Of a stretch of 64,000 nt of DNA, positions 20,263-55,345 are shown one piece after another (position 1 is the stretch's first letter; every line of letters begins with the position of its first letter). This stretch comes from a virus, in the IMG/VR virus record IMGVR_UViG_3300044959_000131, positions 64,001 to 128,000 of that record. One strand, given 5' to 3'. Under the pieces are notes generated by a model. It was not told where the DNA came from and did not search any database. It was given only the letters and a program-made list of their open reading frames with translations. Position numbers and translations under genes: made by a program.

Positions 20263-21639
20263 ATGAAGACCGCGGGCGTCGTTCTCGATTTCTACGATGA
20301 TGTTTCTGGTGCTTATCTCAAGAGGTTATTCCCATCCCCTGATGAACTACCAGAGTGCATTAAGACGGCTCACATTTTGACGCCAGAAGAGAGAGAGGTT
20401 CTTAGAGACGAGGCGTACGCCCTTATCATGAATCAGAACGGCAAAGTTCTACGCAAGTTTGCATGTGTAGATGAGGGCAACACAGTTCTCTCTGTTCTCT
20501 ACTTCTTGGCTAACAAGGACAAGCTTCCAGAGGAAGCAGTAAAAACAGCAGCCGCGAACCTATCATACTTTTGTGAAGAGTTCGGCCTGCCGATTCCTAA
20601 GACCGTAAAGCTGGCAGCTCGGTCTGGGATGGCACGGACCCGGGACCCAATCAAGCAGCCCATTCTCGGAGACTCCGCAGATTGGGCTCAGCGAACCAAC
20701 CTCGTTTCGGTTCGTGGAGGAGCAGACCAAGGCCGCGTCATACCAACTGCTAGTCAAATGAAGACAGCAGAAAAGAAGCAATCGAGCGATCGTGGAACAG
20801 GAGCGACTAACCTTGGTGGTGGTGAGGTTCTCACAGACGACAAGCGTCACATCGGCGTCAAATCCAAGATGCCAAGGCTGAATGAGAACGACAGAATCAA
20901 CCTCGATAGTTTCCACCGCCTCAATCCGAGTGCGAAGCCAAAGACCACGATGGTTGACGTCACCGGTAAAGAGACGAAGCCAAAAGTAAAGAGGTCTTCT
21001 GCGAATCTAACTGCCCTTGGAGGAAGATACCCACTCGACTCGATGGCTGATGTTCAAAAGGCGATTCAGTACTTCGAAGAGAATCGCAAGGAGATGGAGC
21101 CGATCGAGGTTCATATCTTCGCCGTCAAGACAGCAGCGCGCGCCGAAGAGCTCGGGTTGCCGATTCCTGAAGACATGCGCAGATACGGCTCAATCGAGTT
21201 CGCCCCAGACGTAGACTTCCACATGGCTAATAGGCTGGCTGTCTGCGCACCTGAGTACAAAGAGTTGTACACAACTCTGCGAGAGAAGAGAGCTTACATG
21301 GAGCCAGAAGAGTTCGCTGAACTCCTGACACAAGCTGATACCGTGTCCAATCTTCGATGGTATTGGGGAGGTGAGATTGCCGATCCCTACTACGCAACGT
21401 TCGGCAAGACGGCTTCTTCTTGGAGCTGGCAAAGCAGGACCGGGGACTTCGTCTCAGAGGACGACCTCAAGTGGCTCGCCAGAAATGGTCGTCCTCTCAT
21501 TCACAAACACTTCTCAAGCGAGCTTGTGAATGAGTTCATCAAGGATCCTATTGCCATCTTTGAGTCTCTACCAGATGACTCAAAGGTGATTATTGCTCGC
21601 TTGGCCGCAGATAGATTCGATGGATTGGGGGCAAACTGA
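20263..21639 (+). CDS. Probable virion/head-associated protein with seven K-x-A motifs
   Basis: 458 aa; CAGGAG site; first gene of the structural cluster. Confidence 0.75.
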   Translation: MKTAGVVLDFYDDVSGAYLKRLFPSPDELPECIKTAHILTPEEREVLRDEAYALIMNQNGKVLRKFACVDEGNTVLSVLYFLANKDKLPEEAVKTAAANLSYFCEEFGLPIPKTVKLAARSGMARTRDPIKQPILGDSADWAQRTNLVSVRGGADQGRVIPTASQMKTAEKKQSSDRGTGATNLGGGEVLTDDKRHIGVKSKMPRLNENDRINLDSFHRLNPSAKPKTTMVDVTGKETKPKVKRSSANLTALGGRYPLDSMADVQKAIQYFEENRKEMEPIEVHIFAVKTAARAEELGLPIPEDMRRYGSIEFAPDVDFHMANRLAVCAPEYKELYTTLREKRAYMEPEEFAELLTQADTVSNLRWYWGGEIADPYYATFGKTASSWSWQSRTGDFVSEDDLKWLARNGRPLIHKHFSSELVNEFIKDPIAIFESLPDDSKVIIARLAADRFDGLGAN

Positions 21640-22112
21640 TGCTACACTCAACTGTTGAAGGGTTCATGTCTGGTCTCAAGGCTCTTCCAAAGGTCGGGCC
21701 AGAACGTGGTCGATTCATCACTGCTCATATGAGCCACGCACCGTTTCAATCTGCTCTGCAGGCGCATCCGCAGGGTCCTCAAATCCGTTCTATGTTGAAT
21801 CAGTACCTCAATTCGAAAGCCAATGCTGGATTGAGGCCTGGTTCCACGGTAACGAAAGCTGCGTCTATATACGCCTTCTTCGACGAACTCTACAAGATTG
21901 CGGACGCCGGTCATATTGCCGAGCTTACCGGTCTTGGAATTCTCGCAGCACCGAGCGTCAAGACTCTGTTAGACCCAAAAGCATCTAATAAGGAGAAGTC
22001 TCACGCCAAGTTTGAAACAGTAGGACTTGGAGTTCTCGCGGCGCCGAGCGCTTACAAGCTCCTTACAAAGAGGGCGGCCAGATACCACACTGGTTCACCA
22101 TACAGATGGTAG
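21639..22112 (+). CDS. Probable head-internal protein with FFDELYKIA cassette and a duplicated hydrophobic segment
   Basis: GLGILAAPSVKTLL and GLGVLAAPSAYKLL; TGATG coupling to the upstream gene. Confidence 0.7.
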   Translation: MLHSTVEGFMSGLKALPKVGPERGRFITAHMSHAPFQSALQAHPQGPQIRSMLNQYLNSKANAGLRPGSTVTKAASIYAFFDELYKIADAGHIAELTGLGILAAPSVKTLLDPKASNKEKSHAKFETVGLGVLAAPSAYKLLTKRAARYHTGSPYRW

Positions 22113-22174
22113 CACCATCGGTCCGGTCAAGTGGTTTGATTACATGAATCGGTAAGTTCTTCAAGGGTTTATAA

Positions 22175-23110
22175 GTGCAAAATCCAGAACTCGACTTGTT
22201 TGAGCGCTTGAAGGGCGTAGCTAACGTCAAGCCAACGGCTCCTTCAGAGGGGTCCGCGATGGAAGAGGAGTTGAAAAAGTCGAACCCAGACTATTCGACT
22301 CCTCTCTCCATCAGCAACCTCTTCACTCATCACGATGTTCATCCAGTCGTTCTGGATTTTGCTCTCCTCAAAGCGTTCGGCACCGATTGGTTTGGATGGG
22401 ATACGACGACGGTCTTTCAGGAAATAAAGAGAGTTTTCTCTTCGCAGATTTCTGAACACTCTCGGGCGAAGATTCAGGCTGTCAAGACCCTACATCTCGT
22501 AGGAACACCTTGGACAAGTTGGCAGGTCTTCGAGAAGATCATCCAAGCATTGAATAACAACATTCCTAGATGGGAATTGATGCAGGCACCGACTCTTGAG
22601 CAGCTCTACGCCGGCATCGACATCATGGATGAGATTCGTAGAGAAGAATTCGACGACGAAGTCAAGCAGTACATGGCTGCTGCCGTTCTGAACGAGGACG
22701 TTTTCTTTGTACCCCCTCCTCTCGACTTCATTCAGCTTGAAGTCAGTCAGCCGCACTATGTCTGCTTGGACTGCGGCAATCAAGATTCTGCCCTTTTCAG
22801 CGACGGCACTTGTGATACCTGCACACGCAAGTACGCTCCAGAGAACGGACTTTCGTTCAGGCCGGATCCTGATGTTCTAGACAGTGGTAAGGGTAAGAAC
22901 CTTAAGCTTGTGCTGAGGTTCGACCCGAGCCCAGTTGAGGCTCGGTGGAACCAGGTTTCGCATATGGCGAGTAAGGATGTAGATCTGCAAGAGAATCAGG
23001 TTGACATCCAAGTTGCAAAGCTGCTCGTAGCAAGAGATTACATGAACATTCGCAGGCGTCAACTTGCGGATCAGCTCATCGCATTGAAGTCTTGGTTGGG
23101 GTCCGCATGA
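22175..23110 (+). CDS. Hypothetical protein with a CxxC...CxxC zinc ribbon (311 aa)
   Basis: CLDC...CDTC; lies in the cluster upstream of the portal. Confidence 0.8.
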   Translation: MQNPELDLFERLKGVANVKPTAPSEGSAMEEELKKSNPDYSTPLSISNLFTHHDVHPVVLDFALLKAFGTDWFGWDTTTVFQEIKRVFSSQISEHSRAKIQAVKTLHLVGTPWTSWQVFEKIIQALNNNIPRWELMQAPTLEQLYAGIDIMDEIRREEFDDEVKQYMAAAVLNEDVFFVPPPLDFIQLEVSQPHYVCLDCGNQDSALFSDGTCDTCTRKYAPENGLSFRPDPDVLDSGKGKNLKLVLRFDPSPVEARWNQVSHMASKDVDLQENQVDIQVAKLLVARDYMNIRRRQLADQLIALKSWLGSA

Positions 23111-23607
23111 ACATCCACATGATTTCTGCGTTCACAGATGAACTCGAGAAGATTGCCCTCACCGAACGTGGTGCCGAAGTTTTTAGGAAGCAGGTCAAAG
23201 AGTATCGAGAAAGGGCATCGAAGCCTGGATTCAAGCGATCGCAGCAACTGCCCGGTTTCTGGAAAGGTATCATCAATAACATCCGGGCTACGGGCCGTCG
23301 ATTCAAGAATCCGAAGATGATGCTGAAACGATTCAAATGGTCGCTCACGGCTCCAGGTGTACCTAGGTACATAAAAGCCCTATCTGGACTTGGAATTGCC
23401 TATGAAGCTCGCGAAGTTTTGAAGAAAGGTGATGAAGGGACTAGCAGACTGCGACGTGCTCTTGAGGGAGCAGGAGGTCTCATTGGTGGGACTGCAGGAA
23501 GGGGGATTACTGGTTCAATTGTTGGCGGCACAGCAGGTGCGTTAATTGGAAGCCAAGCTGGTAAGGTAATCGACAAGATTCGAGGCTACAAGCCACATAA
23601 AGAGTAA
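23107..23607 (+). CDS. Probable head-internal protein: AFTDELEKIA cassette, basic region and glycine zipper
   Basis: ATGA overlap with the upstream stop; C-terminal GAGGLIGGTAGRGITGSIVGGTAGALIG. Confidence 0.75.
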   Translation: MNIHMISAFTDELEKIALTERGAEVFRKQVKEYRERASKPGFKRSQQLPGFWKGIINNIRATGRRFKNPKMMLKRFKWSLTAPGVPRYIKALSGLGIAYEAREVLKKGDEGTSRLRRALEGAGGLIGGTAGRGITGSIVGGTAGALIGSQAGKVIDKIRGYKPHKE

Positions 23608-23613
23608 TCAACG

Positions 23614-25674
23614 ATGTCATTCGACAGCCTCAGCCTTGGATTTGGTGGAACTTCACGCTTTTCTGGTCAGCGTGGACGTACTGCGGACGGCATGTCACGG
23701 AGCGGTATTCGTTACCCGTCTCCGTTCTTTGACATCGGACATACCTACCTGCCGCCGTCCCTCAAGGCTCTTCTCAGGTGGTGTAGGTACTACTACCTCG
23801 TGAATCCGCTCATCAACGCGGTCATTCACAAGATGTCGGAGTATCCAATCACCGAAATTGTCATCGACGAAAAGGACCCCGAAATCAAAAACAAATGGGA
23901 CTCTCTCCTTGGAGAGATTCTTCGGATTCGTCCATTTCAAATAGAGGTTGGCCTGGACTACTACACATACGGGATGTGCATTGTCACGATTCACTTCCCG
24001 TTCGACAAGTTCCTTATCTGCAGGAACTGCGGATTCAAAGACAAGGCGACGAAGATCAACTACCGTTGGCGTAACCTCGACTACATTGTCGATTGCCCAA
24101 AATGCGGCCACTCGGGACCTGCAAAGGTTCAGGACTTCTACAAGCGAGATGTCAACGGCATCCGATTGATGAGGTGGAATCCAGAGTACGTGAACATCGA
24201 TCCGGCATTTGCTGGTGCAGATCCAGTCTACACATTCGAGCTCCCACTTCAGGTCCGGAATGACGTCATCCTCGGTAAGAAGAGTGTGCTCGACACCATC
24301 CCGGACACATTCATCGAGGCGATGAAGAGGAACAAGTATGTCCGTTTCTCAGACGACAACCTCTTTGTTTTCAAGCGGCCCATCATCAGCCAGAAAGATT
24401 CTGGTTGGGGTATGCCGCTCATCTTCCCTGTCCTCAAAGACACGTTCTATCTACAGATATTGAGGAAGGCACAAGAGGCTATTGCTGCTGAGCACATTGT
24501 TCCACTCCGAGTTCTCTTCCCACAACCCGGCTCTGCATCCTCGGATCCATACTCGACGATTTCACTCGACTCGTGGAAGAGCAGGATCGAAAGCGAGATC
24601 GCGAAGTGGAAATACGACAACAACTACATTCCTATTCTCCCTCTTCCAATCGGAAATCAGACCATCGGCGGGCAAGGCCGTGCGTTGATGCTTCACCAAG
24701 AGATGGAGGTCTGGTCTAGGCAGATCGTTGCTGGGATGGGTGTTCCGCAGGAATTTGTATTCGGTGGAATGCAGTACTCTGGATCCAATGTCTCGATGCG
24801 AATGGTCGAGAACATGTTTCTTGGGTACAGAACCGATCATGATTTGATGCTCAATCACTTTGCCATCAAGCGCATCGCTCATTTCATGGGGTGGCCGCCT
24901 GTGAAGGCACACATGAGACGATTCAAGATGGCAGATGACCTACAACGTTCAGCCTTCTTCTTTCAGCTAAATCAAGCTGGAAAGATTTCAGACCAGACGT
25001 TGCTGCAAGAAGTTGATTTCGATCCAGCAACTGAGGAGACTCGTCGCAAGATTGAGCTAGACAAGCAACTTGAGTTCAATCGCAAGATGCAAGTCGCTCA
25101 AGCTTCTATTCAGGGCGAGATGCAAATCGTTCAGGCTCGCTATCAAAAGCGGGTTTCAGAGCTTATGCAGCCTCCTGCCGAGAATATGTCTCCTGTAGCT
25201 CCTCAAATGGCTGAATCCGGAGGTGGTGCTCTAGTAGAGCCGCCTCCTCCAGAGAATCCTTCAGAGAACACTGAAGGCGGTCCAGTTACGACACCGGAAG
25301 GTGAAATGCTACCTGGTAAACAAGTCGACCCGGCCATGCCTTCTAATTCGACAGTGTCATTCGAGAATGCTCAGAGTGCTCCATCAGAGGGTATCCCACC
25401 AGAGATGATGAGCCCACTCTCGGCGAGCATGAAGGGCGGTGGATTCAATCTTCTCTATTTGGCACGACGTGCGGCAACCGCGCTTCTCAAGATGGATGAA
25501 GGTCAGAGGATGGCCGAGATGAACAACATGAAGATGACCAACCCTCAGCTATACAGCCTAGTATTACAGCTTTTGAATCGCGAAAGAGGATCGCAGGAGA
25601 ATCCTCTTGATGCTGTTCAAAGCCCTCAGCCGCAGATTAAGCCCTCACGTCGTGCGAGCTCAACTGGTGTTTGA
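23614..25674 (+). CDS. Portal protein
   Basis: PSPFFD...RWCRYYY..NPLINAVIHKMSEYP N-terminal pattern, LMRWNP, GWGMPLIFPVLK and QEFVFGG; size and context also fit. Confidence 0.8.
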   Translation: MSFDSLSLGFGGTSRFSGQRGRTADGMSRSGIRYPSPFFDIGHTYLPPSLKALLRWCRYYYLVNPLINAVIHKMSEYPITEIVIDEKDPEIKNKWDSLLGEILRIRPFQIEVGLDYYTYGMCIVTIHFPFDKFLICRNCGFKDKATKINYRWRNLDYIVDCPKCGHSGPAKVQDFYKRDVNGIRLMRWNPEYVNIDPAFAGADPVYTFELPLQVRNDVILGKKSVLDTIPDTFIEAMKRNKYVRFSDDNLFVFKRPIISQKDSGWGMPLIFPVLKDTFYLQILRKAQEAIAAEHIVPLRVLFPQPGSASSDPYSTISLDSWKSRIESEIAKWKYDNNYIPILPLPIGNQTIGGQGRALMLHQEMEVWSRQIVAGMGVPQEFVFGGMQYSGSNVSMRMVENMFLGYRTDHDLMLNHFAIKRIAHFMGWPPVKAHMRRFKMADDLQRSAFFFQLNQAGKISDQTLLQEVDFDPATEETRRKIELDKQLEFNRKMQVAQASIQGEMQIVQARYQKRVSELMQPPAENMSPVAPQMAESGGGALVEPPPPENPSENTEGGPVTTPEGEMLPGKQVDPAMPSNSTVSFENAQSAPSEGIPPEMMSPLSASMKGGGFNLLYLARRAATALLKMDEGQRMAEMNNMKMTNPQLYSLVLQLLNRERGSQENPLDAVQSPQPQIKPSRRASSTGV

Positions 25675-25695
25675 TGGCATCGTACTTCGAGGCCT

Positions 25696-25723
25696 AAAAA
25701 AGGTCGGACTACTCGTCCGCCTT
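25696..25723 (-). terminator. Terminator for the antisense zinc-finger island
   Basis: AAGG-CGGAC/GTCCG-A-CCTT stem with a T-run on the minus strand, overlapping the TAG at 25709. Confidence 0.55.
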
Positions 25724-26891: not shown

Positions 26892-26975
26892 TTTGCTGGA
26901 GTTTTACTAGTGCCGCCGTAAGTCTGGCGGCGAGGTAAGTCATGAAGCTCAGAAAAAATGAAGCTAAGAAGAGTT

Positions 26976-38723: not shown

Positions 38724-39842
38724 ATGCCTTTCAAGTCCGAAGCTCAAAGAAGAAAGTTTCACGCCATGGCGGCTCGAGGAGAAATATCCGAGAGCAAGGT
38801 CAGAGAGTGGGAACATGAGACACCGAACAAAGACAGTCTTCCTTACCGCGTGAAATCTGCAAGCCTGTTCGTGCCAACTCATATATCAGCAGGTTTGTCT
38901 TTTAAGACGATTGGTAGGTCTCATGGTAAGCACGCACTCCACTCAGCTAAGAAAAGGATGAGAAAGGCCATGAACAAAGAGTCAGGTGCTATCGAATTGA
39001 TTACACTAAACTCGTTTGTCAACGAGCTCGAGAAAATATCATCCAACTATTTTCCTTCTCCTGTTTCTGCTTCGGTATCTGCACGTAGAGCCGTTAGAGC
39101 AAGGGTTGCTGCGGCAGCTAGAGCTGCAGAGGAAAAGAGGAAAGCTTTAGAGGCTGCCTCTCGAGCCAAGTACAAAAACGCACCTGGCGACTTAGAGGTG
39201 GATAGGCTCAATAGGCGTCGTGATAGAGCCGCCGCCCGTGGAAGTACCACGAATCCGGCACCGCAACCAGCACAGAACGCTCCAAACACGAAGCCGCCAG
39301 AACCACCAAAACCAACGGCAGCTACTCAACCAGCAGCTAATAAACCAGCATCTACTCAACCAGCAGCTAATAAACCAGCATCTACTCAACCAGCAGATAC
39401 TCAATCGGCAGGTAAACAATCTGAGCCATCGACAAGCGGATCATCAATGAGCTCGGCGGCGAAATGGGGGCTAGGAGGCCTTGCAGCTGGTGTAGCAACT
39501 GGTGTAATTGGAACAAAGATGCTGGAGAAGAAATTGAAAAGAAATGATGAGTCGTCTTTAGACAAGACTTCCATGCCATTTCTCAAGCAGGACCGTCCTG
39601 CGAAGGTGAAGGAAATCTACAAGGCACTCAAGCGCGACCATCCAAACATGCCAGCAGAAGTCAAAGCTCGTATCGCGGCTCGGAAAGGCAAGAAGAGCCC
39701 AGAGTCAAGGAAACCTCCAGAGACCGGAGGTCCGGCATACAAGGCTCCTCTTCACTACGAGTACAAAGACGGTAAGTACAAGGCAGCAATGTATAGAGCC
39801 ATCCAGAACCTGAAGCGATCGCTTGGAGAGGTATACTGGTGA
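38724..39842 (+). CDS. Modular basic head-associated protein, possible polyprotein
   Basis: Starts MPFKSEAQRRK; contains FVNELEKISS, a Pro/Ala linker, a Gly-rich hydrophobic segment and a second MPFLKQDRP module after DKTS. Confidence 0.75.
   Translation: MPFKSEAQRRKFHAMAARGEISESKVREWEHETPNKDSLPYRVKSASLFVPTHISAGLSFKTIGRSHGKHALHSAKKRMRKAMNKESGAIELITLNSFVNELEKISSNYFPSPVSASVSARRAVRARVAAAARAAEEKRKALEAASRAKYKNAPGDLEVDRLNRRRDRAAARGSTTNPAPQPAQNAPNTKPPEPPKPTAATQPAANKPASTQPAANKPASTQPADTQSAGKQSEPSTSGSSMSSAAKWGLGGLAAGVATGVIGTKMLEKKLKRNDESSLDKTSMPFLKQDRPAKVKEIYKALKRDHPNMPAEVKARIAARKGKKSPESRKPPETGGPAYKAPLHYEYKDGKYKAAMYRAIQNLKRSLGEVYW
39322..39396 (+). repeat. 30-bp tandem repeat x2.5 in coding sequence (TQPAANKPAS)
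   Basis: CTACTCAACCAGCAGCTAATAAACCAGCAT twice plus a 15-nt partial copy. Confidence 0.9.
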
Positions 39843-39845: not shown

Positions 39846-41276
39846 ATGTCTCTATCTGCCAGAGACTTCATCCTTCAGAAGCTGGCTGAGTACGCTCCTG
39901 GAATCCCAGACAAGGAGACTGCTCACCCTCTTCCAAAGATTGATAAGCCAACGACGTGGGAGTTTGGTCTCCACGAACACCACGCCGAGAAGAGAGGTCT
40001 GCACTACGACCTACGACTCGGTGACCCGAGAAGCGGTCATGCCCATTCCTGGGCGCTCCCAGCAAAATGGCCCGGCCCCGGAGAGCACATCTGGGCCATT
40101 CAGCAGCCGACTCATACCGTCAGGTACATGGATTTTGAGGGACATATTCCGAGCGGATACGGTGCTGGGAAGGTCGTCCTCAAGGACCGAGACAAGATCG
40201 AGGTGACGAAGGCAGAGCCTGGGTACATCTCCTTCAACATCTATCGTGGAACGGGCCCTGAGGAATACTCTCTCCGTCACATCGGAGGAAAGGTCTGGCG
40301 TTTTGTGAACAAGACTATTCATAGGGAGAAGCACCAGCATATACCTGAAAAGAAGCCGGATTACAAGGAGGTTCCTGTTTCGAAGGTTCCTATAGATGAC
40401 CCTCGCTATGTGATGTCGGCAAAGATTGATGACGCTCACAACATCTTCTACTTCCCGAAGGCTGGTGAGCAGGTAAGGGTCATATCTTACAGGAAGTCAA
40501 AACGAGCCCCAGGCGGGTTCATCGAGCATACCCACAAAGTTGATGGTATTTTTGGTAAAGAGACTCCAAAGGAACTGGCCAACACAGTTGCCAGAGGTGG
40601 TCTCTACGCAATCAATCCGAATACTGGACGTGCCACTGAGGCTAACATAATTGGCGGGATGCTTAATTCAAACGTCTGGAAGTCTCGTGAGAAGCAAAAG
40701 GATTTTGGAAAACTCGTACCTGTTCTCTATGACATAGACATCTTCAGGGGCAAGGATCTTTCAAAGGCGCCGTACAGGGAAAAGCTCATGGCTCTGAAAC
40801 AGATTCAGAGAGCCATGCCTGGTGTGTTTGAACTCCCAGATATGGCGTTCACCGTCGAGGAGAAGAAGAAGCTCCTTGAGGACATAAAGAATAAGAAGCA
40901 CCCACAGACAGAAGAGGGAGTCGTTCTGTGGAACGCCGTCAAGAGCGAGCCTCCAATAAAGGCCAAGTTCCGCACTGAAAGAGATGTCATCATCAGGGGT
41001 TTCTTTCCTGGAGAAGGACAGCACAAGGGTAAAGGAGTTGGAGGGTTTGTCTACTCGATGACGAAGGACGGACCAATTGTCGGGAGAGTCGGCACTGGTC
41101 TGTCTCACGCTCAGAGACGGGACATGTACAAGAACCCGGAGAAGTACATAGGACTCGTAGCAACTATTGGGTCTCAAGGAGAATTCAAGAGTAAAGCCCT
41201 CAGAGCACCAAGTTTTCTACGATTCCACCTTGACAAGAATCCTCAGTCTCGATTGGACCAGATTCAACTGTCGTAG
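39846..41276 (+). CDS. LigD-type 3'-phosphoesterase domain fused to an ATP-dependent DNA ligase domain
   Basis: PE domain: HHA...LHYDLRL, SWALP, MDFEGHIPSGYGAG. Ligase: SAKIDD, RGGLY, YDI, EEGVV, IKAK and OB-fold VGTGLS...LRAPSF. Confidence 0.85.
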   Translation: MSLSARDFILQKLAEYAPGIPDKETAHPLPKIDKPTTWEFGLHEHHAEKRGLHYDLRLGDPRSGHAHSWALPAKWPGPGEHIWAIQQPTHTVRYMDFEGHIPSGYGAGKVVLKDRDKIEVTKAEPGYISFNIYRGTGPEEYSLRHIGGKVWRFVNKTIHREKHQHIPEKKPDYKEVPVSKVPIDDPRYVMSAKIDDAHNIFYFPKAGEQVRVISYRKSKRAPGGFIEHTHKVDGIFGKETPKELANTVARGGLYAINPNTGRATEANIIGGMLNSNVWKSREKQKDFGKLVPVLYDIDIFRGKDLSKAPYREKLMALKQIQRAMPGVFELPDMAFTVEEKKKLLEDIKNKKHPQTEEGVVLWNAVKSEPPIKAKFRTERDVIIRGFFPGEGQHKGKGVGGFVYSMTKDGPIVGRVGTGLSHAQRRDMYKNPEKYIGLVATIGSQGEFKSKALRAPSFLRFHLDKNPQSRLDQIQLS

Positions 41277-42698: not shown

Positions 42699-42995
42699 TG
42701 GATGTTCATCTCTTGGAAGTCCGAGCCTTCGTTTGATGATCACCTTCGTGGTCATTGAGGTTCCTTCGGACTCGACTTTTCCTTGTGGAACGGTATCGTT
42801 CTTCGCGGCATACTGCTGAAAGAGATTCCAGGTGAGCAGCATCCTTTTGCCTGATATAGGTTCACCAAATCTGAACTTGACGATGTACACCAATGGATTG
42901 ACAGTGGTTTGAAGTTCGAATGAAACACTCGTTCCAAGGGCTCCTTCCATTGAATGGCAAAATGATTTGAGCCAAGCGAGTGGTGGCGGTATCAT
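42690..42995 (-). CDS. Hypothetical protein (up to 101 aa)
   Basis: Fills the gap between rnhB and terminase; start uncertain (42995 or 42950). Confidence 0.55.
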   Translation of the reverse strand: MIPPPLAWLKSFCHSMEGALGTSVSFELQTTVNPLVYIVKFRFGEPISGKRMLLTWNLFQQYAAKNDTVPQGKVESEGTSMTTKVIIKRRLGLPRDEHPAA

Positions 42996-47153: not shown

Positions 47154-48296
47154 ATGAATGAGTTCGAAAACTATCTCTTGAGCGGAAAGAATCACGCAAA
47201 GCTGTCCGCCGAGGCTCTTGAGTTAATGGGTAAGCAGGCGGCGAACCTCTACCTCGATGAGGGTATTCCTCTCAACGATGGAATCGCAAGGATTGCTGGG
47301 GAACATCCTGATATCTCAGCAGAGCAAATCAAGAGAATCGTTGAGTTCGCCAATACCGCAGTGTACCTGGCCAAGCACGACCAGAATAAGAATGCCGGAA
47401 GAGAGTACAGCTACCCTCAATTTGAACTTGCTGATGCAGGTCGAATCATTCAGGACCTATCAGATGGCGCCAGACCAACGATTGTTACCAAGACCGATAT
47501 CGATTATGCCCGTCAGGCAAAAAAGGAGAAGTTATCGTCTCCGGAGCTTGAATCCGCACTAATTGGTCTATTCAAGACGTCATCTGGAGAGTCTGAAGAG
47601 AAGGACTACAGCCCTGATACCGTTGTACATGAGCTGATGGCGGCAAAGGACCTTCTGGTTGGTCTGCGTGATAACATTGGGGACCTTTACAATCAGCATG
47701 AGGGCCTATTTAAGGAGGCCGCCTCCGACTTCTACAACAACGTCAAGACATACTTGCTAGACGGTGGTTCCTTTGGTGAAGTCGTTGCCGCACTTGGTAC
47801 TGTCGCAAATGACGATGACCTCAAACTTCATTTGGAGCCAGTTGTCGCGAGACTCATTCGAGAAAAAGTCGCCTCTGTGCAGGAGCTCAAGAAGCAGTAC
47901 TCTGAAGTCGAAAAGATTGCTCATCGTACGGTCGACCCAGAGCATCCAATCATCTTGTCGTACTCCGCCATGGTCCTCGCTGGTGAGGAGCTACAGAAGA
48001 CAGCAGCCGCACTTGAGGAGGTTGGAACTGAACTGAATACTCTCAACGGCTTCATCAAAGAAGCCTATTTCACGAAAGAGTCACTCGCTCCACTCGTCGC
48101 AGCGGCTTCCAGAGCCCTTCCTGCTATCGGCCGCTTCGCAGCCGGAGCCGGTCGAGGTCTATTGGGGCAGATCGGACGTGGTGCTTTAAACGAGTTCAAG
48201 AACAATCCAATCTCGACCATATCCACAGCCAAGTCACTGCTTCCTCAGAGACGGCAAGCTCCAACCCCTCCGGCGCAGATGAACCCCGGATACTGA
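47154..48296 (+). CDS. Probable head-associated protein (380 aa) with K-x-A motifs
   Basis: KTSS, KEAA, KVAS, KIAH and KTAA; Gly/Ala-rich basic C-terminal segment. Confidence 0.8.
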   Translation: MNEFENYLLSGKNHAKLSAEALELMGKQAANLYLDEGIPLNDGIARIAGEHPDISAEQIKRIVEFANTAVYLAKHDQNKNAGREYSYPQFELADAGRIIQDLSDGARPTIVTKTDIDYARQAKKEKLSSPELESALIGLFKTSSGESEEKDYSPDTVVHELMAAKDLLVGLRDNIGDLYNQHEGLFKEAASDFYNNVKTYLLDGGSFGEVVAALGTVANDDDLKLHLEPVVARLIREKVASVQELKKQYSEVEKIAHRTVDPEHPIILSYSAMVLAGEELQKTAAALEEVGTELNTLNGFIKEAYFTKESLAPLVAAASRALPAIGRFAAGAGRGLLGQIGRGALNEFKNNPISTISTAKSLLPQRRQAPTPPAQMNPGY

Positions 48297-48601
48297 TGCG
48301 TATGATGAAGAGACTACAGAAGATTGCGTCAAGTTCAGCAGCTCTTCGAAATGTCTTCTTACGTAAGGAAGCGGGCCTAGGTCGGGCCGCGGCAGGTGCG
48401 GCGAAGTACGTTGCCGACAAGGCACTTGGATTTGCTGGTAATCAAATCAAGAAACATGGACCGATTTGGGGAACCTTTGGATTGATTGGTGGTGGAATGA
48501 CGCTTGCCGAAACGCCCAAGGCTGTTCGGTCCACGTACCAAGCTTACAAGTCTGGGTTCAACCCGGCCCTTCATAGAGCAGAGCTTGGTCTTGATAGATG
48601 A
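48296..48601 (+). CDS. Small basic Gly/Ala-rich head-associated protein
   Basis: LQKIAS, RKEAG and WGTFGLIGGGM; TGATG coupling. Confidence 0.7.
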   Translation: MRMMKRLQKIASSSAALRNVFLRKEAGLGRAAAGAAKYVADKALGFAGNQIKKHGPIWGTFGLIGGGMTLAETPKAVRSTYQAYKSGFNPALHRAELGLDR

Positions 48602-48616
48602 TGTACGAGGACGAGA

Positions 48617-49249
48617 ATGACTACTGAAGATATTCTTACAGCTGTTTCTGAGTCCCATCCAGAGATGATGGCCAAGACGGCTAAAATCATTGCCATAACC
48701 GAGCGACTTTATCCGGAGTTCGTTCCAGGTATCATCTCTGATTTCGAGACCATTTGCTCAGTCGTCAATGAAAAGACGGCAGAGAAGATGACCGGATTGA
48801 AGCCTTATGCGATTGGTATCGCTGGTACTGTTGCAGGTGGTCTCTTAAGTGCCATCGCAACCGACCTCTACGACGCTGCCAAGCGCGGTCTCACAAAGGG
48901 ACGTAACTTCAAACGCATCATGGAGGCCAATCCAAATCTCAAGAGGGAAGTAGATAAGAAAACCCTCTTAATGGCATATGACACGCTTCATAGGTATGCT
49001 CCAGAATTTACTGCAGATCCGCTTCTCGGTGGAGCTCTCCTAAAGAACATCTCAGAGCTTCCAAACATGAGTCACAAGACCATTGTCGAACTAATTGGTG
49101 CGCAGAAGAATATAGCTGATGCCAAGAGCCGATACTTCTCTGAAATGTCAAAGCTTTCTCCACTTCTCGTCCCAGACAGCGGTCATACAGAAGTAAGATA
49201 TGAGGGCGGGGTTGAAAAGTCGAGAACGGTTAGACGTCCAGGTGTCTGA
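48617..49249 (+). CDS. Probable head-associated protein (210 aa)
   Basis: KTAK, KTAE and YAIGIAGTVAGGLLSAIA; coupled to the protease gene. Confidence 0.75.
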   Translation: MTTEDILTAVSESHPEMMAKTAKIIAITERLYPEFVPGIISDFETICSVVNEKTAEKMTGLKPYAIGIAGTVAGGLLSAIATDLYDAAKRGLTKGRNFKRIMEANPNLKREVDKKTLLMAYDTLHRYAPEFTADPLLGGALLKNISELPNMSHKTIVELIGAQKNIADAKSRYFSEMSKLSPLLVPDSGHTEVRYEGGVEKSRTVRRPGV

Positions 49250-52200
49250 TGAAGAAACAAGTTCAATTCAGAGGACATACAGAGTTTGGTGTCTTCTGTC
49301 GGTCGCTATTTGGAAGTTCAGGAGCGTTTGAGAAGATTGCTGGAGCTCCTCCTTTTGCTGATTGGCCAACAGGAGAAGAGCTTAGAAAGTACATCTCAAA
49401 GATTACCAAAGAGGACCGTAAAAAGTACGTATACGTTCTCGTAAACGCTCTCGGAGCTGGTGAGTACTTCGGTTGCTTCCCAGCAGGCTCCATTGTTCGT
49501 TCTAAGCGAGGAGATATCCCTATTGAGCATGTCGTAGTTGGTGACGAGGTTCTCACTCACAGAAATAGATGGAGAAGGGTCATTGCAACCAACCGCAAGT
49601 TTCATGATCTCGGGTTGGTTCATTTGGATGTCACCGGGGTTCCGCACTTGGCTCCGGCTATCTCAGCGACCCCGAATCATGAGGTTTTTGTCGTTCCTCG
49701 TGACGACTTGTTTCGAGCTCGTAGAGATATTCTCTACAAGCGTGGAGAGATGGATTGGAAATCCTCCTACAATGAATTTGTTTCATCTCTGAATCCAGAC
49801 TGGATGCCGATTGAGTTCATCCGCCCAGGTGACTTTCTGTTTCAGCCATTTCCGATTGAAACTCGGAATTCAGACTTTGCTCAGAAGTGGGGAGATCATG
49901 ACTTTGCGTACTTGATGGGACTCTTCGCGGCTGAGGGGTGTCTAGCAGAGAGGTACGGTCGGGATAGGAACAAGGAACGATCGGAGCTGGTTGAGAGGAT
50001 TGTTTTCGTCATAGGGGATCATGAAGATCACATCGTCAGGAATGTACAGCGCATTGTAGAGAAGCATGGGAGATCTGTGACCGTAAAAAGGACCCCAGAG
50101 ACCAAATCTATTCGCCTTGAACTTTGTTGGAAGGAGTTGGCTCAAGCTTGTTTGGAGCACATCGGCTGCCATTCAACCGAGAAGAGCTTGTCTTGGGACA
50201 TTCTCACAATGCCACATGGGTGGCAGGAGGCTTTTCTAGCTCCATATGTTGAGGGTGATGGACACTTTGTAGAGAACTCAAAGTTTGAGCGGTACAACGG
50301 CTCAGTGGTTATATCCACCGCATCTAAGAATCTGGCCTTGGACCTACGACTTCTCTACGCTCGTCTCGGGATCGTGGTATCTGTTAACGGACGGCATAAT
50401 ACCAAGGCCACTTGGTACAACGGCAACCCAATTTACACCATTCACATAGGAAAAACGTGGGCCAAAGACTGGAATGGCTCGACTAGGGCGTCAAGCTACA
50501 TCGATAAGGAACGTGGGTTCATCATTTCACCAGTGAGGAGTGTTTCGCATGAGAAGTGGTCCGGTGAGGTATTTGACCTGACAGTCGAGGAGGACAGTTC
50601 CTATGTTGTGAATGGGATTGTCGTCCACAATTCGAATATCAACGCGGACTACTTTCCTTGGAATGCTCTTGCGCATGAAGGCGACGACTACGGCTACAAA
50701 ACGTTCCTGAACGCCCATGCATTTCAGCATCACAAGAACAAGGACCCGACTAGGGCTTTCGGAGTCCCAGTTCTCTCGGTGCTGAACCACCCGATGAAGC
50801 GTGTCGAGCTCATCGTCAGACTCGACAGAGCAAAGGCAAAGGAAGAGCAGGCTGACGGCATCATCACTCGTATCGAAGCCGGAGAGTTTCCAGATGTCAG
50901 CATGGGCTGCGTCCCCAAGTACGCAAAGATATTGAGGAAGGATGGACGTATCGTTCACATCGAGGAGATCCGAGAGGGAGACGAGGTCATATCACATCGA
51001 GGACGCGCTCAGAGAGTCGTCAGCACGATGGTCCGCCGTCACAAGGGAACCATCTTTCACATCAAGCCTTATGGTCACAGAGACGCTCTGATTCTGACCG
51101 AGGAGCACCCTCTCTGGATCGTTCGTGCTGAGCAGATGGAGTGCCGTCCATCTTCGAAATCCATAAATCAGGGTCGGAGACAGCATGTATGCACCCCAGA
51201 CAGCCATCTCACGAAGAAGGGCTGTTCTGGCTGTTTAACGAGGCCCTCTTTCAAGTTTGAGTGGGTCCGAGCAGATGAGGTTTCCGAGGGAGACTATCTT
51301 GCGATGCCTATTCCGACCTTTGAGGCTGAACGAAAGTTCACAGCCGTCGAGGCAAGGCTTCTCGGATACTATTTGGCAGAGGGCTACGTCCTAAAGAACA
51401 ACTCTGGCGAGGCAATCGGGGTCGAGTTCTGCACCGGGCTGAATGAGATCGAAACCCATGACGAACTTCGTAAGCTCGCCACTCTATCTGGCCTCGCAGA
51501 TAAAGTCGTCGAGCGAGACATCCCTGAGCGCAATGGAAAATACATCGCCATCTGGGATCGGAATCTGGCTGATCTTTGCTCCACTCATTGTGGGAGTGGA
51601 GCAAAGACGAAGTTTCTGTCCGCCTCATTGATGGGGGCTGACGAAGAGACTCTACAGCTCTTCATCGGTGCCTACGCGAACGGAGACGGTGGGTGTTACG
51701 AGGGTTCCATCTACTTCTCCACTGCATCGGAGCAACTTGCTGACCAACTTCGAATCTTATTGGCCCGTCTGCGCTGCATCGCAAGCGTAAACGAGATTGT
51801 CCACAAGCCGTCGAAGTTGGTTAATACAGAGACCGTAGAGTTTCAGGTCCGTGTTGGGAAAGACTCGGCTTGGAGACTTACCGGTTCGAGGTTTTCACCC
51901 GGTCGGTCAGAGAAGATCTGTAACAAAAGGTTCTTCTACGATTTCGAGGGAACGACGTATTTGATGACTCCCATCGAGCGTATCGATGAGGTCGAATACG
52001 ACGACGATGTCTACAACTTTGGAGTCGAGAACGACGACAGTTATCTGATCGATGGTTTGGCTGTTCACAACTGTAAAGTTCCTTTTGACATTTGTTCGAT
52101 ATGTGGACAGAAATCCAAGACTAGGCTGGATTACTGCTTCCCACCTGGGACGCCAATTCTGATGGCCGATGGACAGTTCAAGGCCATCGAGGAAGTTCGA

Positions 52201-54273
52201 GTTGGTGACGAAGTTATCACCCACACTGGATCTACAAAAAGGGTCGTTCGTCTACTACCTAGCACGGCTCACGACGGGCTGATCAAGATTACGGCTTATG
52301 GATTTGGAGACATATTAGCTACTCCAAATCACCCATTCATGATTGGAAGGACAAAGACCGGTGTGAAAGGAGGTCGTAAGGCACAGCTCGACGAGTCGCC
52401 GCCAGATTGGGTCGCCGCAGAAGACGTTCAGCAATTCGACACTGTCTTTCTGCCAATTCCAAAAATTGAGCTCTCCAAGGATTCAAAATACAGCAATGCA
52501 CGCGTCGGGTGGTTACTCGGGCTCTACCTAGCAGAAGGGTCCCCAAGCTTCTCTCCTGGTGTCGCGCATCCGAAATCAGTCACGTTGTCAGTCAACGTAA
52601 GCGAATCCTTTGAGGACCGCGTCAAGGAAGCCGTAACTTTGATGGGAGGCGACGCCGCAGACGTTAGCGTCTGCGTATCAGAGGAGCGACACAGCAAGAG
52701 TATTCGAATCAACAATAGAGAGATTGCTGAGTGGCTTCTACTGATGGGTGGGCGTGGTAGTCACACTAAGACGCTCAATCCTGCAGTTTGGCATCTGGGA
52801 GAAGAATTTGCTAGGGGTGTTCTTCTCGGTTGGTGTGATGGAGATGGTAGCACTGGTGATAACGTAACAAGGATCGCAACTTCGTCTGAATCCCTTGCGA
52901 GGCAGATGCAACTTCTTGCTGCATCTTGTGGGATTCTATCAGGTCTTAAGCTATACTCTCGTGATACCAATTTCTGCCACCAGGATATTTGGTATCTCAC
53001 GTTCTCGGGAGATGCCTCGGCGGCTCTTCGTGAGCAACGTCCCCAGGAAGTTTTTGAGAATCAGTCCAAGCTCTTCTTCTGGAAGAATTACCTCTGCTCT
53101 ACTGTCAGAAGAGTTGAAGAAGTTCCATACCATGGAGACGTCTTCAACTTTGAAGTCGAGGATGACCACTCATACGTAGCCGGATGCTTTGCGGTTCATA
53201 ATTGCCATCACATGATGCCTCCTCCAGAGCTGAGGAGTGTATACGGACCGAACAAGATTCTCCCCGATGGCCGTCGCATCTACGTCATCAACACGATGCC
53301 GAAGTTCTTCGACATCAGTTTTGTATTCATTGGTGCAGACAAGACGGCGAAGGTGATGGCCAAGGTGGCATCCGTTGGAAACTCGGTTTGCCTTGGAGAA
53401 GTGTGCGCAATACCGAGACCGTCAGCCGTTGTTCACGAGCTCACTTCATCACCACCTTCTGAAGATGGATTCCGGAAGGTCGCTTCTGCAGATTGTTCTT
53501 GCGGATGTGGTGGGCCGTGTGATCCAATGTCAAAGCTTGCCGATGCGTTTGGTGCCACAAAGGTCGGGGAGATCATCAAGACCGTACCAGCTGGAAACTT
53601 TGCCAAGAACATCCTTCCAGCAATTGAGGCTTCAGAACCAGACCTACCAAAATCTCTTCTCAATGACCTGGCATCTAGGCACACAATTGGGGAGATTACG
53701 GGTCGCGCCGCCTCCCTTGGCATTGTGTTGAAGCCTGTTGAGTTCCAAAGGATTGTACTTGTAAGGATGGGAAATGGAGAACTGGCAGACGAGCTCGACG
53801 ACGAGTGCAACGTATTCAGACACGTCCAAGCTGTGGACGACTCAGTCCAACCAGACCCCCTACTTCCTGAAACTGGTCTCCTTCACCTGCTCCGTCGATT
53901 TATCTCAACTCGTTCGGGACTGGGGGAGCCACTCCGGATCCGGTCTGTTAAAGTTATGCTGGGCGTGAAAAAGCCTCTTCCCACCCGGACGCCGATCGAA
54001 CATCCTCTACTCGACAAAATCAGTGCCGCCTATAATGGGTATAGGCGGAACCTTCTGAAGAAACTTTCACAGGTCGAAAACGTGATCTACAACGACCCAT
54101 CGCTAAGAAAAGAGATCTTGGGGAATCGGTTGTCTAGCTTGTTCACAAAGACGGCCAACTCCCAAATCTTGTCTCACGATTCGTTGTCGTACATGATGGG
54201 CGCGTACTTCACGGATAGAGGCCTGTTGCTCAATACTGGCATTACTGATGTAGTGTCAGGTTTAATGGCCTAG
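49249..54273 (+). CDS. Prohead maturation protease precursor with three inteins (544 aa after splicing)
   Basis: Spliced extein reads ...GEYFG-SNINADYF...QHH...DVSMG-CKVPFDICSICG...DY-CHH...FFDISFV; lies immediately upstream of the scaffold and capsid genes. Confidence 0.82.
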   Translation: MKKQVQFRGHTEFGVFCRSLFGSSGAFEKIAGAPPFADWPTGEELRKYISKITKEDRKKYVYVLVNALGAGEYFGCFPAGSIVRSKRGDIPIEHVVVGDEVLTHRNRWRRVIATNRKFHDLGLVHLDVTGVPHLAPAISATPNHEVFVVPRDDLFRARRDILYKRGEMDWKSSYNEFVSSLNPDWMPIEFIRPGDFLFQPFPIETRNSDFAQKWGDHDFAYLMGLFAAEGCLAERYGRDRNKERSELVERIVFVIGDHEDHIVRNVQRIVEKHGRSVTVKRTPETKSIRLELCWKELAQACLEHIGCHSTEKSLSWDILTMPHGWQEAFLAPYVEGDGHFVENSKFERYNGSVVISTASKNLALDLRLLYARLGIVVSVNGRHNTKATWYNGNPIYTIHIGKTWAKDWNGSTRASSYIDKERGFIISPVRSVSHEKWSGEVFDLTVEEDSSYVVNGIVVHNSNINADYFPWNALAHEGDDYGYKTFLNAHAFQHHKNKDPTRAFGVPVLSVLNHPMKRVELIVRLDRAKAKEEQADGIITRIEAGEFPDVSMGCVPKYAKILRKDGRIVHIEEIREGDEVISHRGRAQRVVSTMVRRHKGTIFHIKPYGHRDALILTEEHPLWIVRAEQMECRPSSKSINQGRRQHVCTPDSHLTKKGCSGCLTRPSFKFEWVRADEVSEGDYLAMPIPTFEAERKFTAVEARLLGYYLAEGYVLKNNSGEAIGVEFCTGLNEIETHDELRKLATLSGLADKVVERDIPERNGKYIAIWDRNLADLCSTHCGSGAKTKFLSASLMGADEETLQLFIGAYANGDGGCYEGSIYFSTASEQLADQLRILLARLRCIASVNEIVHKPSKLVNTETVEFQVRVGKDSAWRLTGSRFSPGRSEKICNKRFFYDFEGTTYLMTPIERIDEVEYDDDVYNFGVENDDSYLIDGLAVHNCKVPFDICSICGQKSKTRLDYCFPPGTPILMADGQFKAIEEVRVGDEVITHTGSTKRVVRLLPSTAHDGLIKITAYGFGDILATPNHPFMIGRTKTGVKGGRKAQLDESPPDWVAAEDVQQFDTVFLPIPKIELSKDSKYSNARVGWLLGLYLAEGSPSFSPGVAHPKSVTLSVNVSESFEDRVKEAVTLMGGDAADVSVCVSEERHSKSIRINNREIAEWLLLMGGRGSHTKTLNPAVWHLGEEFARGVLLGWCDGDGSTGDNVTRIATSSESLARQMQLLAASCGILSGLKLYSRDTNFCHQDIWYLTFSGDASAALREQRPQEVFENQSKLFFWKNYLCSTVRRVEEVPYHGDVFNFEVEDDHSYVAGCFAVHNCHHMMPPPELRSVYGPNKILPDGRRIYVINTMPKFFDISFVFIGADKTAKVMAKVASVGNSVCLGEVCAIPRPSAVVHELTSSPPSEDGFRKVASADCSCGCGGPCDPMSKLADAFGATKVGEIIKTVPAGNFAKNILPAIEASEPDLPKSLLNDLASRHTIGEITGRAASLGIVLKPVEFQRIVLVRMGNGELADELDDECNVFRHVQAVDDSVQPDPLLPETGLLHLLRRFISTRSGLGEPLRIRSVKVMLGVKKPLPTRTPIEHPLLDKISAAYNGYRRNLLKKLSQVENVIYNDPSLRKEILGNRLSSLFTKTANSQILSHDSLSYMMGAYFTDRGLLLNTGITDVVSGLMA
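49474..50631 (+). mobile_element. Intein 1 with LAGLIDADG endonuclease (386 aa)
   Basis: CFPAGSIV...VVHN, Ser+1; LMGLFAAEG and YVEGDG. Confidence 0.93.
50908..52071 (+). mobile_element. Intein 2 with LAGLIDADG endonuclease (388 aa)
   Basis: CVPKYAKI...AVHN, Cys+1; LLGYYLAEG and YANGDG. Confidence 0.93.
52135..53202 (+). mobile_element. Intein 3 with LAGLIDADG endonuclease (356 aa)
   Basis: CFPPGTPI...AVHN, Cys+1; LLGLYLAEG and WCDGDG. Confidence 0.93.
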
Positions 54274-54335
54274 AGGTCCTAACCTCGAAGATGGCAATCG
54301 ACTCATAACAACCACAACACGGAGAACTAGAAACA

Positions 54336-55004
54336 ATGGATCCAAGACTTGCAGAAATCTACGGAACCAACGAGGACATCAGCGACACTGAGAAGCTAGC
54401 CGCTGCCAAGCTGGCAGAGGAGCTCGCGGACGATGACGAGATCGACCTCGACGGAATGTCCGATGAGGAAATCGAAGCCCTCGCTAGAGAAGTCCTAGAG
54501 GGTGACGACAGCGACGATGACGACGAGTACGATGATGCCGCTGAGAAGGTCGCCGAGGCCGACTACCTTGGGCGTGTAATGGCACACGCCTACGTACAGG
54601 AACTAAAGAGCATCGAAAAGGCGGCTGCTCCGGAGCCGTCGGCGGCGACGGCGCTCGCGAAAAGGTCAAGGCTGAGAGAATACTACGGCAAGGGCAAGAT
54701 GCAGCTCGAGCGGGCATTGAAGGCCATTAAGTCCCATCCGAAGACCACAGCAGGAGTCGCCACTGGTCTAGCTGGTCTCGGTGCTGGTGCGTACCTGCTT
54801 AGCAGAAAGAAGGGGAAGCGTAAGCACGCCTCGGCCACTCCGGCGCTCGATGCACTCGCCGAGCAGAGGGCACTTGAGATTCTAGAGGAAAATGGAATCG
54901 ACGTAAACGATGAGAGCGATTCGAAGTACGATGTTCTCGCTCAGGCCGTTGAGTTACGTGCTCGGGAGATGCTCGAAGACGCAGGATACGAGTTCGAGGA
55001 CTAA
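54336..55004 (+). CDS. Acidic scaffold-like or core protein
   Basis: Highly acidic helices, KLAA/KVAE/KAAA/KHAS, and one central basic-hydrophobic segment. Confidence 0.75.
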   Translation: MDPRLAEIYGTNEDISDTEKLAAAKLAEELADDDEIDLDGMSDEEIEALAREVLEGDDSDDDDEYDDAAEKVAEADYLGRVMAHAYVQELKSIEKAAAPEPSAATALAKRSRLREYYGKGKMQLERALKAIKSHPKTTAGVATGLAGLGAGAYLLSRKKGKRKHASATPALDALAEQRALEILEENGIDVNDESDSKYDVLAQAVELRAREMLEDAGYEFED

Positions 55005-55019
55005 TACCAGTTCTGACGG

Positions 55020-55066
55020 TTGGGGATTCCTGGGAATTGGTATTTCTCAATCCCAGGAATCCCCAA
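55020..55066. repeat. Perfect 16-bp inverted repeat (long intergenic hairpin)
   Basis: TTGGGGATTCCTGGGA (55020-55035) and TCCCAGGAATCCCCAA (55051-55066) with a 15-nt spacer. Confidence 0.9.
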
Positions 55067-55084
55067 TCTGAGAGGTCAACGACA

Positions 55085-55345
55085 ATGCCCAAGTGGCATA
55101 TCAGTTTGGGTACTGTCTTGGGCTTCTCAGATGAGCTTCAGAAGATTGCGATGTCATTTAAACCGACATCTTTTGGAGACGTGAGGAAGGAAGTGTCGTA
55201 CGCGGGAACAGCACTAGCGAGGCGAAAGCCAAGCTATGCAAAGGTCAATAAACAGCAGACACTACCGGCATCGTCATCAGAGCTCACTGAGAGCGCAAAG
55301 ACTGTTCAACCACCCCCTGCGACGATGCCCGGGGGAGATTTGTAG
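55085..55345 (+). CDS. Small head-associated protein with GFSDELQKIA cassette
   Basis: GAGAGG site before ATG 55085; the track's 55037 start lies inside the hairpin. Confidence 0.7.
   Translation: MPKWHISLGTVLGFSDELQKIAMSFKPTSFGDVRKEVSYAGTALARRKPSYAKVNKQQTLPASSSELTESAKTVQPPPATMPGGDL

Follow-up and report, generated by a model that had tools for sequence, protein, structure and literature searches.

Here, we describe a cassette of 17 amino acid residues, with the consensus M-x7-F-x-D-E-L-x-K-I-A, that recurs in otherwise unrelated proteins encoded in a stretch of viral DNA—bases 64,001 to 128,000 of a single viral contig of 176,945 bp (IMG/VR record IMGVR_UViG_3300044959_000131). These 64,000 nucleotides, hereafter referred to as the window, encode a portal protein, an HK97-fold major capsid protein, an intein-bearing large terminase and many proteins without a family match. 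Our analysis indicates that the cassette is probably an N-terminal address-plus-cleavage propeptide that would work like the capsid-targeting sequence (CTS) of bacteriophage T4, although its sequence is new and its cutting rule would be K-x-A.

A recurrent cassette in the window and in the genome

An earlier note on this DNA had pointed to four copies of a common motif in four genes, and a six-frame scan bore this out: the pattern F-x-[DN]-E-L-x-K-I-[AS] matched exactly four times in the window, always on the + strand and inside an open reading frame (ORF), with the phenylalanine at positions 21876, 23131, 39015 and 55124. The coordinates given there proved to be those of the starts of the carrying genes, not of the motifs themselves. 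The four strict copies, two decayed ones and the neighboring portal gene are located as follows.

21861..21902 (+): cassette copy 1, ASIYAFFDELYKIA, with AFFDELYKIA at 21873–21902, in ORF 21639–22112, two genes upstream of the portal gene
23107..23157 (+): cassette copy 2, MNIHMISAFTDELEKIA, the full N-terminal 17-mer of a 166-residue protein (23107–23607), with AFTDELEKIA at 23128–23157
38991..39041 (+): cassette copy 3, IELITLNSFVNELEKIS, internal, residues 90–106 of a 372-residue protein (38724–39842), with SFVNELEKIS at 39012–39041
55097..55150 (+): cassette copy 4, HISLGTVLGFSDELQKIA, in a small head-module protein (55085–55345, ATG at 55085), with GFSDELQKIA at 55121–55150
54573..54626 (+): decayed cassette, RVMAHAYVQELKSIEKAA, in an acidic head protein (54336–55004) whose orthologues carry the canonical AHAY.QEL.KIA
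47967..48008 (+): decayed cassette, AMVLAGEELQKTAA, near the C-terminal part of a 380-residue head-module protein (47154–48296) whose orthologues carry L[DE].EI.KVA
23614..25674 (+): portal protein, given for context only; the cassette genes at 21639 and 23107 belong to the same co-directional gene run

The looser versions that had been proposed alongside the strict copies fared unevenly. Those in the genes at 54336 and 47154 are the decayed copies listed above, canonical in their orthologues, whereas the gene at 58547 (QEVLEKVSS) has just a short EK[IV][AS] word, twice, and YEATEKLAF in the gene at 60438 offers a K-L-A word alone, with nothing else in its favor. Across the genome, the wider form of the cassette is [A/G/S]-F-x-D-E-L-x-K-I-[A/G/S], and three to four looser copies occur besides the strict ones. 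The strict pattern (F..EL.KI[AS]) was observed seven times in the 176,945-bp genome, compared with 0.006 occurrences expected by composition over the whole proteome. A profile made from the copies, along the lines that the earlier note had proposed, matched 10 places in the genome and between 3 and 13 in each of eight near-complete relatives (about 190–210 kb), with no match in two control phages of 180 kb.

Copy 4 obtained the top profile score; its phenylalanine is residue 14, a conserved K-T-S stretch lies ahead of it in the orthologues, and, in most related loci, the orthologue that precedes the capsid gene retains the cassette. The protein carrying copy 2, for which ATG 23107 is the probable start (the gene was called with the same start), is basic, has a C-terminal glycine zipper and is encoded directly upstream of the portal gene. 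The phenylalanine of copy 3 is residue 98, and the carrying gene is located just upstream of a DNA ligase gene. In copy 1, the phenylalanine is residue 80 of the long ORF 21639–22112, and the orthologues begin 9–10 residues ahead of it. The N-terminal stretch of 70 residues (window 21639–21850) is missing from all three orthologues, and the ATG of the ORF overlaps the stop codon of the upstream gene (ATGA). Either this stretch is a lineage-specific extension or the true start is TTG 21831; in the comparison, the extra 70 residues appear as an insertion specific to this genome.

Shape, position and independence of the cassette

The alignment of 118 distinct copies, drawn from the genome and related loci, displayed conservation from −8 to +8 around the phenylalanine and an abrupt stop after K-I-[AGS]. 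Hydrophobic residues prevail at −8, −5/−4 and −3 and a small residue at −1, followed by F/L/Y, x, D, E, L, x, K, I and A/G/S. The resulting 17-mer is moderately amphipathic and slightly acidic, with a mean net charge of −1 and an acidic D-E-x-E face. In four complete genomes and a further 68 distinct IMG/VR copies, the phenylalanine is most often residue 9 of the protein (e.g., MNIHMISAF..., MNLQMLKSF... and MDILMLKSF...), and a methionine is found no more than 12 residues upstream in about two thirds of the 68 copies; the unit is therefore usually the whole N-terminus, M-x7-F-x-D-E-L-x-K-I-A.

The description of the carriers as otherwise unrelated also stood: once the cassette was masked, the proteins shared no significant similarity. 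Moreover, synonymous codon use differs between copies, with an identical codon in just 44% of the residue matches—indicating that the peptide is under selection and that the copies are not recent DNA duplicates. At the level of sequence, this argues for purifying selection on the peptide rather than on the DNA.

Several known types of N-terminal or amphipathic element were considered for the 17-mer and rejected. A double-glycine leader of the bacteriocin type, in which an E-L-x-x-I helix precedes G-G (or G-A/G-S) at positions −2/−1 of the cleavage site, is similar to the E-L-x-K-I of the cassette in spacing, but the A/G/S that comes next in the cassette gives way to a mixture of A, S, E and G, with no conserved G-G. 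A membrane-targeting amphipathic helix of the MinD/FtsA type has a basic face and is usually C-terminal, whereas the 17-mer is acidic and N-terminal. A Prp/L27-type N-terminal motif was likewise rejected on sequence grounds.

The end of the cassette is a word found in head proteins

K-I-A, with which the cassette closes, is one instance of a shorter word, (E/Q)-K-[IVLT]-[AS], that also occurs in head proteins lacking the rest of the 17-mer. In the head module of this genome, EK[IVLT][AS] is enriched about 12-fold (p = 1e-9); the enrichment is 18–31-fold in the relatives G001 and G003 (p = 1e-13 and 3e-15) and about 5-fold in G002 (p = 0.02). No enrichment was observed in any of these four genomes for the reversed word or for a control word ending in D/N. 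Proteins of the window that bear the word are listed below.

57335..58453 (+): major capsid protein (HK97 fold), 372 residues, with FFEKVA (57371–57388) and KEKIA (57401–57415) at the N-terminus
56378..56752 (+): scaffold-like helical protein, 124 residues, containing the K-[VL]-A word five times (residues 14, 33, 45, 64 and 89)
58547..58906 (+): small basic protein whose gene lies downstream of that for the capsid protein, starting MSVEKIA|S, with a second word EVLEKVS|S and a glycine zipper plus basic tail at the end
48296..48601 (+): 101-residue head-module protein, starting MRMMKRLQKIA|S, with the short word alone

K25 and A27 of the capsid protein are invariant across 30 relatives; the structural model of this protein (predicted local distance difference test, pLDDT, 57.6) confirmed the HK97 fold. 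Scaffold orthologues contain four to seven K-x-A words at conserved places, amounting to 3.6 per 100 residues. Because the repeated sites in the scaffold and the N-terminal sites in the capsid protein and the protease resemble the cleavage codes of phages T4 and SPN3US, we read K-x-[A/S] as a prohead-protease code—an assignment by analogy that we consider quite likely to be right. The order K-x-A would then probably correspond to P3-P2-P1, a cutting specificity that would be new for the gp21 protease fold.

The head-module proteins of Salmonella phage Arash (locus L001, 14509–18934; Gp220–Gp224), found in virions by mass spectrometry, bear [LM]-[TED]-K-[QST]-A words. These sit at matching places, e.g., LTKQAA at the N-terminus of the homologous protease Gp222 (42% identity). 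These words suggest that the short code may be older than the long cassette.

A gp21-fold prohead protease interrupted by three inteins

The gene for the candidate processing enzyme is located within the head module.

49249..54273 (+): prohead maturation protease with a T4 gp21-like fold, 1674 residues including three inteins, with AFEKIA|G at residues 26–32 (49315–49344)

The extein pieces comprise residues 1–75, 462–554, about 942–962 and 1319–1674, so that three splicing events would be needed for an active protease; one of the inteins directly follows the conserved D-V-S-M-G serine motif. The Pfam profiles Peptidase_S77 and Peptidase_S78 matched no protease in the genome, and a phmmer search of the protease against PDB sequences returned nothing. 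The enzyme was identified only by way of an intein-less orthologue, the PHROGs database and a fold search. The intein-less orthologues (526–580 residues, the 526-residue one being encoded in IMGVR_UViG_3300017774_005745) match phrog_18299, annotated as a head maturation protease, and their protease domain ends in a conserved ...GADKTAKVMAKLAS, so that the K-[IVLT]-[AS] word is present at the domain end as well as at the N-terminus. An AlphaFold (AF2) model of the N-terminal 290 residues (pLDDT 72.7) had T4 gp21 (5jbl_A) as its best match, with a Z-score of 10.0, a root-mean-square deviation of 2.9 Å over 135 residues and a Foldseek probability of 0.96; the next structural matches were herpesvirus proteases (Z-scores of 6–8). 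In 26 protease orthologues, the N-terminal word has an invariant K, preceded by a variable residue (E, H, G, V or D), and a nearly invariant A. In the model, this K-x-A site falls within a low-confidence loop. A 335-residue protein encoded at 55352–56359 was also considered for the role of the protease and rejected, as the ESM Atlas gives a low-confidence, probably disordered or helical protein.

Proteins that carry the cassette

The composition of the proposed cargo was assessed on 149 N-terminally tagged proteins no longer than 350 residues, by comparing the part after the tag with the background. The median net charge per 100 residues was +7.8 in these small carriers versus +0.9 in the background; 95% of them were net positive versus 54%, and glycine plus alanine made up 23% of their residues versus 14%. 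Glycine-zipper-like segments were also commoner (54% versus 31%), and many carriers end with such a segment followed by a basic tail. Transmembrane anchoring was rejected as a general feature of the carriers, given that their maximum hydropathy is the same as that of the background. A second recurring module, consisting of a Gly/Ala-zipper helix and then a lysine/arginine tail (e.g., ...GLAGLGAGAYLLSRKKGKRKHAS), is present in several cassette carriers.

Zipper plus basic-tail module: 54336–55004, residues ~125–165; 58547–58906, C-terminus; 38724–39842, residues ~250–275; genome positions 169275–169805

The larger carriers comprise four SNF2 helicases, two C92 amidases, a MazG/P-loop protein, a GNAT protein, a tape-measure-like protein and ligase fusions. 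The SNF2 helicase is tagged in L117, L133, L147 and G002, and its orthologue in G003, 59% identical, has no tag; presence or absence of the tag on an orthologous helicase thus shows the cassette to be modular and portable. The sigma factor of the phage is extended at its N-terminus by a leader of ~90 residues, which opens in three genomes with a conserved variant, A-L-E-W-[AV]-L-x-K-[IL]-[SA]; the homologous sigma factor of Arash lacks this leader. The genome also encodes, outside the window (6880–7761), a cassette-tagged protein of 293 residues with a protein-kinase fold. The Pfam kinase match (E = 0.008) is too weak alone and gained structural support: all ten structural neighbors of the protein are Pkinase families, with template modeling scores of 0.51–0.58, and its features are like those of minimal effector kinases of the SteC/OspG type. 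A PARP-like match (E = 0.029), equally too weak alone, found no further support and was discarded. Pattern matches in IMG/VR within a transketolase, an aminotransferase and a glyoxalase look like chance internal matches and were left out of the cargo.

In phage Arash, virions contain the DNA helicase Gp217 (1148 spectra, 100% coverage, with 1333 spectra for the capsid protein), and the sigma factor Gp10 was detected as well (PMC10585845). Along its whole length, Gp217 shares 36–39% identity with the tagged SNF2 helicases, and Gp10 is 30% identical to the core of the sigma factor of the phage studied here. Homologues of two tagged proteins are therefore virion-associated in the nearest cultured relative.

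Distribution across an uncultured clade

A total of 288 relatives of the capsid protein were identified in IMG/VR contigs. The only cultured relatives found were Arash and Vibrio phage D69 (capsid identity 29–37%); their genomes, which are of the same size and double as a specificity control, gave no match to the cassette profile. A back-translated DNA pattern matched at least 117 IMG/VR stretches, including tandem arrays of small cassette genes, such as four copies within 1.3 kb in L181. Contigs with cassette–SNF2 fusions belong to the same clade, with capsid identities of 61–63%. A word-index search with the N-terminal 40 residues had no match, and a 43-column cassette profile matched just 16 unnamed hypothetical proteins, none with a Pfam domain—the databases hence hold no existing annotation for the carriers.

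A proposed loading and release mechanism

Drawing these observations together, we propose that the mildly acidic amphipathic helix formed by the 17 residues would bind a component of the assembling prohead, for which the scaffold core, the protease and the inner capsid surface are candidate receptors, and would thereby co-assemble whichever protein comes behind it. After shell closure, the gp21-fold protease of the phage would cut at K-x-[A/S], the final word of the cassette; through this word it would also process the capsid protein and its own chain and degrade the scaffold. Mature cargo would thereby be set free within the head. Most of it would be small, basic proteins rich in Gly and Ala, which might serve to coat the DNA, and the rest would include enzymes—the SNF2 helicase, the kinase-fold protein, the C92 amidases and the variant-tagged sigma factor—that would enter the next host with the DNA. 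The cassette itself may consist of two parts: [AGS]-F-x-D-E-L, which lies upstream, has a hydrophobic face spanning −8 to +7 and would serve for docking, and K-I-A, the presumed protease word.

The earlier note had described a portable helix that docks varied cargo and is then cut off. Much of that description is retained here: the cassette is typically N-terminal and portable, ends in a putative protease word, occurs with a gp21-fold protease, heads mostly basic proteins and has carriers with virion-associated homologues in Arash. The interpretation is supported in part: the cassette showed no significant concentration in structural blocks, and some copies are internal.

Several points speak against the cassette as an address-plus-cleavage propeptide. 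By gene position, 8 of 11 carriers fall within structural blocks that cover 58% of the genome; this is not significant (p = 0.25), and the other three (genome positions 6880, 169275 and 171950) lie outside these blocks, among small genes. Internal copies exist (residue 98 in the protein at 38724 and residues about 490–570 in the ligase fusions), which a simple N-terminal tag would not predict. The helicase and the sigma factor of Arash enter virions without any cassette, and the Arash proteome covers 116 of 272 proteins and is for that reason not very specific (PMC10585845). The capsid model is too poor, at its pLDDT, to place residues 1–27 inside or outside the mature fold. Finally, the characterized gp21-type proteases all cut after glutamate, and the alanine or serine proposed here for P1 differs from every one of them.

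Alternative explanations

One alternative is that the cassette acts as a processing signal only, i.e., an extended protease site or pro-sequence that could, for example, keep basic DNA-binding proteins or enzymes inactive, with loading left to other features. K-x-A is indeed the sole element common to the cassette and bona fide head proteins, an acidic tag heads very basic proteins, and Arash homologues reach virions without a tag. Such a signal would, however, leave the extra [AGS]-F-x-D-E-L block and the fixed N-terminal distance unexplained, given that other sites work with K-x-A and little else. The cassette has approximately eight conserved residues beyond K-x-A that are missing at the scaffold, capsid and protease sites, which suggests a second function in binding. 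Besides, prohead proteases work inside a closed shell, so the substrate must enter regardless. We therefore regard this explanation as unlikely.

We regard it as equally unlikely that the helix docks onto a hub located elsewhere than in the capsid, a role for which the RNA polymerase of the phage, the replisome or clamp, or a host factor could qualify; K-I-A would then be coincidental. Several of the larger carriers do act on nucleic acids (the SNF2 helicase, the MazG/P-loop protein, the ligase-linked proteins and the sigma factor), the carriers are basic, and three of them are encoded beyond the structural blocks. Such a hub is difficult to reconcile with the presence of the cassette on small head-module proteins encoded beside the scaffold and capsid genes and in genes flanking the portal and sheath genes, or with an ending identical to a word enriched 12–30-fold in head proteins; the acidic polar face speaks against membrane binding, and the cassette contains no consensus of the clamp or single-stranded DNA-binding protein type.

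Descent from a fast-diverging paralogous family of small basic proteins with a slow N-terminus and no addressing role would suit the small, basic, Gly/Ala-rich character of most carriers, their often similar glycine zipper and basic tail, and tandem arrays such as that of L181, but it is highly improbable in view of a 17-mer on unrelated folds (SNF2 helicase, kinase fold, C92 amidase and MazG), a tag present or absent on orthologous enzymes, the lack of detectable similarity outside the tag and the apparent selection on the peptide and not on the DNA.

Comparison with known systems

The T4 CTS on internal proteins is attributed to Mullaney and Black (1996). In T4, the internal proteins IPI–III and Alt carry a CTS that is removed by the prohead protease gp21; these propeptides are 10–19 residues long, and their upstream residues serve targeting while the final ones serve processing (PMC9026906). 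The cassette would similarly be a short N-terminal propeptide (17 residues) on otherwise unrelated, mostly basic proteins, a protease of the same fold is present (Z-score of 10 to gp21), and the same site is also found in the scaffold, the capsid protein and the protease. Unlike the T4 CTS, the cassette displays no sequence similarity to MKTYQEFIAE, and the rule we infer is K-x-[A/S], not L/I-x-E. A genome has about ten carriers, among them helicases, kinase-fold proteins, amidases and sigma factors; the clade is large and uncultured, its HK97-fold capsid protein is compact (372 residues), and the system is known here from sequence. The consensus is M-x7-F-x-D-E-L-x-K-I-A, and in the alignment of the protease orthologues K and A are fixed and the residue ahead of K is variable; the cassette is therefore CTS-like in its proposed working and not a CTS homologue.

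In phages SPN3US, phiKZ and 201phi2-1, gp21-like proteases cut propeptides at A-X-E or S/A/G-X-E (PMC10052503; PMC5694885). There, too, many head and ejection proteins have motif-bearing N-terminal propeptides, the protease processes itself and several sites per propeptide are possible. Those propeptides are, however, mostly long (111–254 residues) and have just a three-residue motif in common, with no consensus helix, and their P1 residue is Glu instead of Ala or Ser.

A precedent for a packaged helicase is provided by DarB of phage P1, a large helicase-containing anti-restriction protein for which 30 or fewer N-terminal residues suffice to load the protein, or a reporter, into the capsid (PMC9024508). 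Unlike cassette carriers, the P1 Dar proteins have no consensus N-terminus (PMC9024508); moreover, DarB loading needs other Dar proteins, and no common protease word is known for them.

As the principle is already known from the T4 CTS, the phiKZ and SPN3US propeptides and P1 DarB, the advance is not a new principle. The novelty lies in the sequence itself, in a K-x-A rule for a protease of the gp21 fold, in how many carriers there are and of what kind, and in the conservation across a large uncultured clade. Beyond phages, the cargo-loading peptides of encapsulins, which have the HK97 fold, and the encapsulation peptides of bacterial microcompartments likewise consist of a short portable peptide or helix that sits on unrelated cargo and binds the inner face of the shell. 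No shell protease is known to cleave them off; in encapsulins most of them sit at the C-terminus, and the compartments they serve are cellular ones without portal, terminase or tail.

A bolder version of the proposal, which we advance tentatively and with less confidence than the propeptide itself, is that the 17-mer could be a sufficient and universal capsid-address tag throughout this clade of ~190-kb phages (at least 288 contigs), loading a fast-changing set of proteins (an effector-like kinase, SNF2 helicases, amidases, a sigma factor serving the RNA polymerase of the phage and basic DNA-coating proteins), and removed by a gp21-fold protease whose P1 preference has shifted from Glu to a herpesvirus-like Ala/Ser (K-x-A). 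If so, the injected proteome of these phages would be readable from sequence. Should the propeptide reading itself hold, one short consensus would name every protein carried in the capsid and delivered with the DNA, and host take-over and anti-defense functions (the sigma factor, helicases and the kinase-fold protein) would arrive ready-made. It would also provide a second natural address-plus-cut tag, unrelated in sequence to that of T4, for loading foreign proteins into capsids, and would show that the cutting rule of a gp21-fold protease can change.

Additional observations

The protein carrying the internal copy 3 begins with MPFKSEAQRRKFHAMAARG (window 38724–38830), a start that we take to resemble a short K-S-x-A-Q-x-R motif common in phage proteins (DUF3008-like), and Pfam gave no match. 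The gene that follows (39846–41276) encodes an ATP-dependent DNA ligase with a LigD-type 3'-phosphoesterase domain; neither of the two genes has an orthologue in the three compared genomes. In two IMG/VR contigs (L128:9164–11539 and L122:8674–10665), a ligase and a cassette-bearing tail are fused into proteins of 660–790 residues, with the cassette after the ligase.

The large terminase (42967–45858) contains an intein at about residues 426–768, and its intein-less orthologues have 597 residues. Finally, G013, the contig to which L181 belongs, harbors a second, partial copy of the capsid gene (102983–103402) that corresponds to the N-terminal 141 residues at 47% identity, within an ORF of 373 residues.

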